Both the position numbers and the translations under genes were made by a program. The notes under the pieces were generated by a model. It saw only the letters and a program-made list of their open reading frames with translations, searched no databases and was not told the DNA's origin. A DNA stretch of 64,000 nt from Dehalococcoidia bacterium (lineage in GTDB: Bacteria; Chloroflexota; Dehalococcoidia; Lucifugimonadales; Australimonadaceae): positions 236,442-300,441 of the forward strand of contig CBDCOP010000007.1 in the NCBI GenBank assembly GCA_965219845.1, written 5' to 3'. Below, in pieces: positions 28,989 to 54,077 of the stretch. Position 1 is the stretch's first letter. Each line of letters starts with the position of its first letter.

Positions 28989-29747
28989 ATGCACGTAGAC
29001 GACTTCGTCGAGGAGCTCTGGACGTACGCGAACAGCTTCCCCATGCGGGGGCACCCGTGGTTCCGCGGCATCGCGGAACACCGGTGGACGCGCGAGCAGA
29101 TCATCACGGGCGAGGTGCAGCACTATCTGCGCGTCCGCGAGAACCCGGTCTATTTTGGCTACATCGCGGCGCACGCCGCTGAGGAGCGCCTCCCCGGCCT
29201 CACCGAGGCCGTGCTGGAGAACTACATGGAGGAGCTCTCCGGAGAGCGCAGCCACGTGGACATCATGTTCCAGTTCCTGGAGGAGGGCGGCGTTTCACGA
29301 GAGGACGCGGACAATGCGCAGCCGACGCCGGGAACGCTCGCCGCCATCGAGATGATCCTCGGCCACTGCCAGCGCCGCTCGGCGCTGGAGGGCGTCGCGA
29401 TGCTGGCATTAGTGGAGAGTCAGCATGGCGGGCCGGAAGGCGCGGCGGCGTCCGCCTACCCGGCGCTCGTCGGCCACTACGGCTTCTCTGAGCGAGCGGC
29501 GGAGACCTACCGCATCCATGCCGAGCAGGACGTGGGGCACGGTCAGAGCCAGATCGACGTGATTAAGCGCTACGCGACCACCGACGAGATGCAGGCGAAG
29601 GTGCGGCGCGCGGTCCGGCTCGGGCTGACGGCGTGGAACCTGGAGTACGACGGCCACGTGCAAGCGATGACCGGCCTCCGCGACCACTGGGACGGCGGCC
29701 ACCCGCTCGTCCACTCCAACCCGCCACTGCGGGTCCCTCTGTCATAG
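28989..29747 (+). CDS. Heme-oxygenase-like diiron protein (CADD/PqqC/TenA superfamily)
   Basis: EE......H, VESQ, H...D..H ligand pattern; AGGAGG SD. Confidence 0.8.
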   Translation: MHVDDFVEELWTYANSFPMRGHPWFRGIAEHRWTREQIITGEVQHYLRVRENPVYFGYIAAHAAEERLPGLTEAVLENYMEELSGERSHVDIMFQFLEEGGVSREDADNAQPTPGTLAAIEMILGHCQRRSALEGVAMLALVESQHGGPEGAAASAYPALVGHYGFSERAAETYRIHAEQDVGHGQSQIDVIKRYATTDEMQAKVRRAVRLGLTAWNLEYDGHVQAMTGLRDHWDGGHPLVHSNPPLRVPLS

Positions 29748-29841
29748 GGGCACGCGCACGTACGCTGCAATGTCGTCCCGCGACGCCTCGGTTTCCGCTG
29801 CGGTCTGACAGACCCAGGGAGAGGCATTCTCGAGTTGTTTC

Positions 29842-30114
29842 GTGAAGGAACAGCTTGACACCGTAAGCATCTTCGGACAGGTCGTCGCGACCTTGTTCGT
29901 GGCGTTCTTTTGTGGAGCGCGTCGCAAGCGCGCATCTCGGCGCGGTATGGGCGCAGCGTTCACGGTAGGATTGGTGCTGGCCGTCCTCGCTGGATTCGTG
30001 CTTTGGACGCGGTGGAAGCGCAAGGGGTACACGCGGCGCATGCACCTGATGCCGCCGCCGTGGTGGGCTATCCTCGCTGCACTCCCTCCTCGAGCATCGC
30101 TGCAGTCAGATTGA
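29842..30114 (+). CDS. Possible small membrane protein
   Basis: Two hydrophobic stretches with basic flanks; atypical codon usage. Confidence 0.35.
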   Translation: MKEQLDTVSIFGQVVATLFVAFFCGARRKRASRRGMGAAFTVGLVLAVLAGFVLWTRWKRKGYTRRMHLMPPPWWAILAALPPRASLQSD

Positions 30115-30156
30115 AAAGAGAGCCCGGGTGAGAAGTGCCTGGCAGAGCACCGGGTC

Positions 30157-30372
30157 CTAGAACGGGAACTCAACGGGCAGCGCTGACCTAAGCTCGGCGT
30201 ACTCAGCGTCGCCGGCATATTCGTTTGCGATGCTTTCGAGGCGCTCAACGAGCTCCTCGACCGGCATCCGGAACACGCTCGAGACCATACCCGTGGTCTC
30301 CTCGAAGTCTCCCCTTCAGTTCCGGTATCAGCCGCGCATCCGCTCCATGAGGTAACGGTCTTCCTCGCGCAT
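30157..30372 (-). CDS. Putative 71-aa selenoprotein with U-x3-U motif (two in-frame UGA)
   Basis: MREEDRYLMERMRG-U-YRN-U-RGDFEETTGMVSSVFRMPVEELVERLESIANEYAGDAEYAELRSALPVEFPF*; TACAAT -10 box 6 nt upstream; SECIS-like hairpin; tRNA-Sec in window. Confidence 0.8.
30281..30300 (-). promoter_or_regulatory. Candidate bacterial SECIS hairpin
   Basis: GAGACCA-CGGGUA-UGGUCUC; loop starts 22 nt after the second UGA and 34 nt after the first. Confidence 0.6.
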
Positions 30373-30415
30373 GGCGCTATTGTAGCCGCATCCGCAAGCT
30401 GTGGAAGGGTCCTGG

Positions 30416-30808
30416 CTAGCGGGAGAAGCCCACTGGATGGAACGTGATCAGTTCCGTGGCCGCGAGCGGGCTGCCATCGGCTTCCGACGTCACCGCGAGC
30501 CGCGTCAGCACACGCCACTCCTGGCCTCGCCATAACACCCGGAGGATCACGAACGCATTCTCGACGAGTTCGCCGGGCGGCTCGTCGAACCAGACGGTGA
30601 ACGCGAGTTGGGTGCTCGCGCCGGATGCCAGCAACGGCTGCTCGCTCAGCGACACTGCATCCGCCCGGAACCGCCCGTGCGGCAGCCATGCTTCGAGCAG
30701 CTCGGCCGGCTCGTCCCCCGCATTCCGAACCTCGAACACGACGCGCCACGCGCCCGCCTCACCGGAGGATCGGCCTACTTGCAGAGCGCTGAGAGACGGG
30801 TTCGTCAT
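30416..30808 (-). CDS. Hypothetical protein (beta-rich, Ig-like pattern)
   Basis: WRVVFEVRN..., LPHGRFR; leaderless start; directly upstream of the candidate selenoprotein. Confidence 0.7.
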   Translation of the reverse strand: MTNPSLSALQVGRSSGEAGAWRVVFEVRNAGDEPAELLEAWLPHGRFRADAVSLSEQPLLASGASTQLAFTVWFDEPPGELVENAFVILRVLWRGQEWRVLTRLAVTSEADGSPLAATELITFHPVGFSR

Positions 30809-53979: not shown

Positions 53980-54077
53980 TGGCGGGAGTGCGAGGGAGTC
54001 GAACCCTCCCCGAACCAGGAAGCTGGCCCGGCAACGGTTTTGAAGACCGCGAGACCCACCGGGACCCATCCACTCCC
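53980..54077 (-). tRNA. selC: tRNA-Sec (anticodon UCA)
   Basis: 6-bp D stem with CGGU loop, CUUCAAA anticodon loop, 9-bp variable arm, GTTCGA T-loop, GCCA 3' end. Confidence 0.95.

Follow-up and report, generated by a model that had tools for sequence, protein, structure and literature searches.

The 64,000-nucleotide (nt) stretch of a Dehalococcoidia bacterium genome analysed here, referred to as the window, holds at positions 30157–30372 of its reverse strand (−) an unannotated reading frame that contains two in-frame TGA codons. This frame is very probably a real gene, encoding a 71-residue acidic four-helix selenoprotein in which both UGAs are read as selenocysteine (Sec, U). The gene and its immediate features are listed below, with conservation in the 23 relatives described in the next section.

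30157..30372 (−): proposed selenoprotein gene (unannotated), ATG at 30372–30370, stop codon TAG at 30159–30157; 71 codons plus stop
30328..30330 (−): UGA1, proposed Sec15 (U15); TGA in 23/23 relatives, aligned with an invariant Cys
30316..30318 (−): UGA2, proposed Sec19 (U19); TGA in 23/23 relatives, aligned with an invariant Cys
30379..30384 (−): −10-like hexamer TACAAT, 6 nt (agcgcc) ahead of the ATG; putative leaderless start in this genus

Read from 30372 to 30157, the frame consists of ATG, 13 sense codons, TGA, the codons TAC CGG AAC, TGA, 52 sense codons and TAG. Its translation is MREEDRYLMERMRG-U-YRN-U-RGDFEETTGMVSS...EFPF, a product rich in Glu and Asp. Under translation table 11, the sole open reading frame (ORF) at the locus comprises the last 43 codons, from the ATG at 30288 (30157–30288), which encodes Met29 of the full frame; the predicted tryptic peptide GDFEETTGMVSSVFR sits N-terminal to this residue. 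The AlphaFold2 model of the full-length protein, made with a 20-row alignment, is all-alpha (predicted local distance difference test score, pLDDT, 94.6; predicted template modelling score, pTM, 0.80), with four predicted helices at residues 3–19, 23–33, 38–51 and 56–63. In this model, helix 1 carries residues 15 and 19 at its C-terminal end, a single turn from each other, which is where the two selenols of the motif G-U-x3-U would be found.

The hexamer TACAAT, with single-base variants, occurs just 5' of the ATG in all 19 same-genus loci, suggesting a putative leaderless start. A scan for the sigma-70 consensus at the locus found no full −35/−10 promoter, and no terminator was found. In distant loci, the full frame opens with a GTG that is preceded by a Shine-Dalgarno sequence (e.g., GGGAGG or AGGAG, 6–7 nt upstream). 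The original prediction for this DNA had described the frame with both TGAs and its stop, the TACAAT box 6 nt ahead of the ATG, an acidic helical product, a 7-bp hairpin with a G-containing loop 22 and 34 nt past the two UGAs, and a tRNA-Sec in the same window. Each of these was recovered here: the box is kept across the genus, the predicted fold is helical, and the hairpin lies within the published limits for both UGAs.

Conservation of the UGA codons and Cys homologues

We searched 61 related genomes in six frames with the translated frame, writing U as Cys. Strong matches were found in 23 of them (E 4e-41 to 1e-15, 51–97% amino-acid identity), namely the window's own genome, 18 of the 21 others of its genus, and representatives of three other genera of the family and of one other family of the order; ten further places with E of at least 0.037 were left out. 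All 23 matches contain exactly two internal TGAs and, when aligned, read ...MRG-TGA-xxx-TGA-..GDFEETTGMVS.... Among these relatives, the numbers of variants at the first, second and third codon positions are 12/10/21 in codons 1–14 (before UGA1), 3/2/11 in codons 15–28 (UGA1 onwards, up to the internal ATG) and 37/26/72 in codons 29–71 (past the internal ATG). The third-position excess that marks coding sequence continues through the TGA region, and upstream of UGA1 the replacements are conservative (E/D, L/M/I/V).

A scan of a collection with one genome per species gave 199 pattern matches, of which 187 encode a relative. Among the best 80 of these 187, TGA occupies both sites in 78, a share that overstates the Sec forms in the family, as FEETTGMV, one of the two scan patterns, favours them; the exceptions are L048 (TGT/TGT) and L064 (TGC/TGA). 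Counted by site, UGA1 is TGA in 78 loci and UGA2 in 79. By their record titles the 80 loci are mostly metagenome-assembled genomes (MAGs) of Dehalococcoidia, SAR202, other Chloroflexota and Limnocylindria; a few are titled Deltaproteobacteria, Binatia, Dormibacterota, Armatimonadota and others, where the binning of short contigs may be wrong.

Homologues with Cys at the UGA sites were found in protein collections. A word-indexed search of 5.8 billion proteins gave 14 hits, 13 of which are the 43-residue fragment (clusters P0003–P0015). The remaining hit, P0002, comes from a Chloroflexi MAG and is listed by NCBI as a hypothetical protein; full-length (73 aa) and 55% identical, it reads RMRGCYSNCHGDFEETTGMVSS, with Cys at both sites (codons TGT/TGT). 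The same Cys form is the single match without TGAs in a family-profile search of 401 genomes sampled evenly across the phylum, in which the 14 other matches, out of 15, have two TGAs. An exhaustive phmmer search of 1.84 billion representatives returned 22 proteins at E <= 0.001, of which 19 were retrieved. Fifteen of these are 60–133 aa long and 31–45% identical, all with C-x3-C at the aligned place, and two are 43-aa fragments; P0029 and P0035, which are repetitive and without the motif, were taken as false. In an alignment of 20 Sec and Cys sequences the invariant columns are C15, C19, F23, T26, M29, L45, R62, P66 and P70. A scan of metagenomes with a Cys profile found 111 relatives, and all 80 of these taken as Cys-clade loci (L118–L197) are Cys/Cys (75 by pattern, five by eye). 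The Sec and Cys profiles align end to end in hhalign (99.6% probability, E 1.2e-23). These sequences point to an undescribed family, made up of a Sec clade, mostly Chloroflexota MAGs by title, and a Cys clade with C-x3-C in metagenome contigs.

The closest pair of forms is found within the species loci. L064 (2482–2694; TGC/TGA) and L077 (3498–3710; TGA/TGA) encode the same 71-residue protein except for residue 15, a difference that suggests a very recent exchange between Sec and Cys at this single position. As L064 is titled Nocardioidaceae and L077 Chloroflexota, one of these short contigs may be mis-binned. Pairing of Sec with Cys at a UGA is a selenoprotein criterion in the field, according to the accessible portions of PMC12013277 and PMC13188914. 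The original prediction had proposed that homologues be sought with U replaced by C, and what such searches brought up at both positions is Cys, not Trp or Arg, with conservation that spans the TGAs; the selA, selB and selD genes that it asked for are all present in the genome, as described below.

These data bear on a different reading of the locus, in which the UGAs are ordinary stops and there are two cistrons, a 14-codon ORF (MREEDRYLMERMRG) ending at UGA1 and a separate 43-aa protein initiated at ATG 30288, with the conserved stretch between them acting in translational coupling or as a regulatory RNA. Gene callers indeed report only the 43-aa ORF (P0003–P0015), and the intervening stretch is highly conserved as nucleotides and forms hairpins. 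Furthermore, GAGGAG lies 9 nt ahead of the internal ATG (30288–30286), so that the 43-aa ORF could be initiated separately, which counts against reading the frame as one protein. Two cistrons are nevertheless hard to reconcile with the full-length Cys/Cys homologues, which are one continuous protein, and with Met29, which is internal to the Cys forms and invariant in them as well. Codons 15–28 vary mainly at third positions, as given above, and helix 1 of the AlphaFold2 model spans residues 3–19 at high confidence. That L077 and L064 differ by a single base (TGA/TGC) is easily explained only if the codon is read. We consider two cistrons very unlikely, and continue with the reading of both UGAs as Sec codons.

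Candidate SECIS hairpin and Sec machinery

In bacteria, insertion of Sec at a UGA would require a selenocysteine insertion sequence (SECIS; bSECIS for the bacterial form), SelB and a tRNA-Sec. The features of the window that bear on this are as follows.

30281..30300 (−): candidate bSECIS hairpin (hairpin 2), GAGACCA at 30300–30294, loop CGGGUA at 30293–30288, UGGUCUC at 30287–30281
30303..30318 (−): hairpin 1, small, conserved and holding UGA2; UGAAG / 6-nt loop / CUUCG, 5 pairs, 100% paired
53980..54077 (−): tRNA-Sec (anticodon TCA), found by ARAGORN; the sole tRNA found in the window

The accessible part of PMC13188914 gives as limits of a bSECIS a loop of 3–9 nt, a stem of 4–16 bp, a G in the first two loop positions, a distance of 16–37 nt from the UGA, and a minimum free energy (MFE) of <= −7.5 kcal/mol. 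Hairpin 2 falls within these limits, with a 6-nt loop, 7 bp, a G at loop position 2 followed by another G, a loop that begins 22 nt after UGA2 and 34 nt after UGA1, and, folded alone, −9.2 kcal/mol, a value equalled in 1 of 200 shuffles. Since both UGAs fall inside the allowed spacing, a single element is probably enough for the two. We therefore propose that the coding-region hairpin GAGACCA-CGGGNA-UGGUCUC would recruit SelB with Sec-tRNA(Sec), and that hairpin 2 alone probably directs Sec insertion at both UGAs.

The two hairpins are a feature of the Sec forms in general. RNAalifold, applied to 65 distinct Sec-form sequences, folds them into two adjacent hairpins, with hairpin 2 as given above, and all 12 pairs of both hairpins are formed in all 65 sequences (slid controls were 28–45% paired). 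In the 78 Sec forms, the hairpin 2 codons E25 GAG, T26 ACC, T27 ACG and V30 GTC are each a single codon; other conserved residues use 2–6 codons, and the Gly in the hairpin loop uses all four. Cys-clade sequences encode T26 and V30 with four codons each, and only 4 of 65 of them form all seven pairs of hairpin 2. As the synonymous sites are frozen in the Sec clade but free in the Cys clade, the nucleotide constraint is limited to UGA-bearing forms. Hairpin 1 also leaves a mark on codon choice: in the Sec forms, codon 20, for Arg, Ser or Gly, is restricted to AGN or GGC, with neither CGN for Arg nor TCN for Ser, and codon 22 is always NNC. In the window's genus only, a longer stem, UACCGGAAC/GUUCCGGAU (30250–30335, −), can enclose both hairpins (MFE fold, z −1.5). 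It was rejected as a family feature, as no complement was seen by eye in distant loci and it is absent from the consensus fold.

The strong nucleotide conservation raises the question of whether the core is mainly a non-coding RNA element, with the conservation of protein sequence before Met29 incidental. The most conserved stretch (columns 16–53 of alignment A4) is indeed kept at the nucleotide level. Against this stand the third-position periodicity and conservative replacements in codons 1–14, and the Cys-clade homologues, which keep the protein but not the nucleotides. An Rfam scan found no family (the best hit, Cyano-2, scores 16.3 bits against a cutoff of 40 and was taken as chance). An RNA element of this kind is extremely improbable as an account of the locus.

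The genome has the machinery for reading UGA as Sec. Genes selA and selB each score above their curated thresholds in the genome of the window and in 56 of the 61 relatives; of the genomes among the 61 that carry the proposed selenoprotein gene, all have selB and all but G023 have selA. The genome's selD (G000:C1:496585-497505; L198) itself contains one in-frame TGA, and 16 nt past this UGA lies a hairpin, AGGACCUC-GGC-GAGGUCCU, that has a GACC.CGG core in common with hairpin 2. Sec is used by almost all of the order, so the presence of the machinery alongside the gene has no discriminating power here.

Stimulatory hairpins past leaky stops occur in other systems, and a hairpin here might likewise merely stimulate readthrough, with Trp, Cys or Arg inserted at the UGAs without SelB or Sec. 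The hairpins show no covariation that would argue otherwise, and Sec insertion itself is something that we infer from sequence. What speaks for Sec rather than such readthrough is that the homologous residue is Cys at both sites, the standard Sec/Cys signature, that hairpin 2 agrees with the bSECIS model and is similar to the hairpin that follows the UGA of selD, and that the genome contains complete Sec machinery and a Sec-containing selD, with selB, and in all but one case selA, in the other carriers of the gene. Readthrough without Sec has, in our judgement, only a slight probability, a little below that of two cistrons.

Besides the separate initiation signal and the scan-pattern bias noted above, several observations weigh against our reading of the UGAs and of hairpin 2. 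There is no compensatory covariation in either hairpin: ten pairs are invariant, two change only to G-U, and none shows two-sided changes, so that, both hairpins being invariant, covariation can offer no evidence. On its own, hairpin 1 folds weakly (−4.0 kcal/mol), and at 14 nt it is too close to UGA1. An alternative hairpin (columns 7–12 with 20–25) cannot coexist with hairpin 1; at 71% paired, it shows some covariation, though two large clades confound this signal. Hairpin 1 is thus a tentative structure for the surroundings of UGA2. To our knowledge, there is no tested bacterial precedent for one SECIS serving two UGAs 12 nt apart. The presence of selenium in the protein and the translation of the gene rest on inference as well. 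Two metatranscriptome runs contain short contigs of relatives over 30268–30473 and 30174–30324; these are a weak hint only, as they show less than 95% likeness and could be DNA carry-over.

Neighbouring genes and possible function

The proposed selenoprotein gene is flanked by two genes that accompany it at most loci.

30416..30808 (−): upstream partner, a 130-aa all-beta, immunoglobulin (Ig)-like sandwich protein; no Pfam/NCBIfam match
28989..29747 (+): convergent partner, a CADD-like enzyme of the heme-oxygenase-like di-metal oxidase (HDO) class (PF14518); the ORF may start at GTG 28923

The beta-sandwich gene is found in 77 of the 80 Sec-form loci, almost always directly upstream and on the same strand, and two of the three loci without it have less than 410 nt of upstream DNA. 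The AlphaFold2 model of its product has eight strands (pLDDT 95.8), and a fold search with it returned only generic Ig-like sandwiches, the best being ApaG (Z 9.7). In two assemblies of the same genus the beta-sandwich gene is displaced: in G010 (L003/L025) it is on another contig, and in G006 (L005/L029) it lies 564 nt off behind a different sequence. Both cases may reflect a rearrangement or an assembly break.

The HDO gene is found in 71 of the 80 Sec-form loci (34 of 38 sequence groups), at 58–81% identity, and in 69 of these 71 it is convergent, on the opposite strand just downstream (median 94 nt). The enzyme, of the CADD/TenA/PqqC superfamily, scores 67.9 bits against PF14518 (cutoff 28.9) and 62.6 bits against the CADD subfamily TIGR04305, which is below the cutoff of 200; it matches chains of solved 4-aminobenzoate synthase (CADD) structures with E about 5e-11. 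The selenoprotein, HDO and beta-sandwich genes occur together, as the identical 23 of the 61 relatives carry all three. Conversely, with these queries none of the three genes was found in G002, G004 and G009, single-contig genomes of the same genus that are 95–96% complete. The module thus appears clearly to have been gained and lost as a unit, with the reservation that kin are not independent.

Other neighbours were rejected as members of the module. Alcohol-dehydrogenase-like, AP-endonuclease-like and zincin-like genes are kept in only 5–6 of the 38 groups. The 90-aa ORF at 29842–30114 (+), situated between the selenoprotein and oxidase genes, which is found in 2 of 80 loci, both in one group, may not be a gene; its product has the look of a small membrane protein, with weak DUF5518 and CcmD-like hits below cutoff. 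Long overlapping open frames are also present on both strands, such as the 335-aa ORF at 29742–30749 (−); they are typical of high G+C content (about 61–74%) and look spurious.

The Cys clade has a partly different context, a co-directional operon (e.g., L189:1191-1964 and L125:1337-1738). In 71 of its 80 loci, a same-strand gene for a zf-C2H2_9 and TenA/PqqC/PF14518 protein follows at a median of 22 nt downstream, and a Cys-rich protein of the Ta0938 family is next in 54 of the 80. The zinc-finger/HDO protein is homologous to the oxidase of the window (26% identity over 180 residues, E 5e-9). As an HDO gene adjoins the gene for the small protein in both clades, the link between them holds in both.

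On this basis, we propose that the U-x3-U motif may act in redox chemistry, as a diselenide/diselenol couple, or may bind metal, as a bis-selenolate Fe/Mn site, and that through it the selenoprotein would donate electrons or metal to the di-metal oxidase encoded nearby; the original prediction had likewise suggested a diselenide or metal binding. We put this function as redox or metal partner of the HDO oxidase forward tentatively, as it is rather less likely to be right than wrong. Several results speak against it. The HDO gene is convergent in the Sec clade, so the two genes are not co-transcribed there; tblastn found the beta-sandwich gene in none of the 73 Cys-clade loci whose upstream sequence is long enough; and a Foldseek search with the selenoprotein model gave no match at E <= 0.001. 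A complex prediction for the HDO enzyme with an alignment of the Cys homologue scored 0.23 against a mark of 0.32, which weighs neither way on binding. A fuller version is similarly doubtful, in which the protein would be a dedicated bis-selenolate or diselenide partner of the CADD-like oxidase, supplying electrons or Fe/Mn or acting as a protein substrate, in a three-gene module that moves between phyla as a unit, with one SECIS hairpin directing Sec insertion at two UGAs.

If the association is true, this would be the first selenoprotein tied to the heme-oxygenase-like di-metal oxidase class. The metal loading and reductants of this class are poorly understood, and the link to a CADD-like enzyme offers a lead to an accessory factor. 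Paired Sec sites are rare in nature, and so small a foldable protein would serve as a model for the chemistry of diselenides or of bis-selenolate metal sites. Similarly, two UGAs with one frozen hairpin would make a natural test system for the spacing rules between SelB and SECIS.

Family status and relation to known systems

The gene is known in public protein sets only as the 43-residue fragment, in addition to the full-length Cys form P0002. The truncation in protein collections is due to the in-frame UGAs, and as only this fragment is present there, against 187 stretches in the one-genome-per-species collection, the family is systematically mis-annotated. The selenoprotein matches no Pfam family at E <= 0.1 and has one NCBIfam hit, of 13.4 bits against a cutoff of 462; none of ten Cys homologues matches Pfam or NCBIfam above cutoff. 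In structure comparisons with VIA-align, the best match is a de novo design (Z 7.5), and helix-turn-helix (HTH) domains (MntR/DtxR, LuxR/GerE, sigma region 4) reach Z 5–6.4 with a root-mean-square deviation of 1.7–4 Å over 47–68 residues, scores that fall within the stated noise range of the tool for helical models. An ESM Atlas search with P0018 returned nothing at 0.9 or above.

The literature gave a similar picture, and the original prediction's remark that a helical U-x3-U family is not a recognised one holds as far as checked. Full-text searches for the motif brought up nothing relevant. Table 1 of a 2026 review (PMC13188914) covers 119 prokaryotic selenoprotein families; its accessible entries, which carry a domain identifier, include UxxU and UxxxxU and no UxxxU, although the supplements or BSepDB might still list one. 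The Pfam and NCBIfam models cited in the accessible text of the review do not match the selenoprotein, and a U-x3-U family is not mentioned in the accessible portions of PMC13188914, PMC12013277, PMC2398784 and PMC13326102. The family may have been listed earlier as an unnamed candidate. The recoding mechanism is an ordinary one; the family, its motif, its fold context and its association with an enzyme appear to be new as far as checked, and would add an all-helical, non-thioredoxin U-x3-U scaffold to the selenoproteins.

Among known systems, CADD (Chlamydia CT610, 4-aminobenzoate synthase) and other heme-oxygenase-like di-metal oxidases are the nearest known relatives, but of the partner enzyme rather than the selenoprotein. 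We know of no small Cys/Sec accessory protein for CADD, and a literature search joining selenoprotein and HDO terms yielded none. The small Tim and CHCH proteins have helical Cx3C or Cx9C motifs, with twin motifs on antiparallel helices joined by interhelical disulfides. Like these, the present family carries an i, i+4 Cys pair on a helix of a very small helical protein; unlike these, it has a single C/U-x3-C/U motif, and no sequence or fold match between them was found. The eukaryotic protein SelL contains a UxxU diselenide. Membership in the thioredoxin-fold UxxU/UxxC class (Prx-like, SelL-like), an alpha/beta fold whose redox motif starts a helix that follows a beta-strand, was rejected, as the model is all-alpha and the spacing is x3 rather than x2.

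The accessible part of PMC13188914 describes several prokaryotic proteins with two Sec residues: a Prx-like thiol:disulfide oxidoreductase (UxxC/UxxU), the metal-binding NF041115 (UxxU), an FmdB-family regulator (UxxU), TsoB (UxxxxU), and VhuD/FrhD (two Sec). As in these proteins, a near-adjacent Sec pair replaces a Cys pair here, homologues with Cys exist, and a redox or metal role is presumed. The present family differs from them in its U-x3-U motif on one face of a helix and in its predicted small four-helix bundle. With regard to decoding, the proposed element resembles a canonical bSECIS in being a coding-region stem-loop 3' of the UGA within the quoted limits, whereas here one hairpin is within range of two UGAs 12 nt apart, the second of which lies inside a mini-hairpin of its own.

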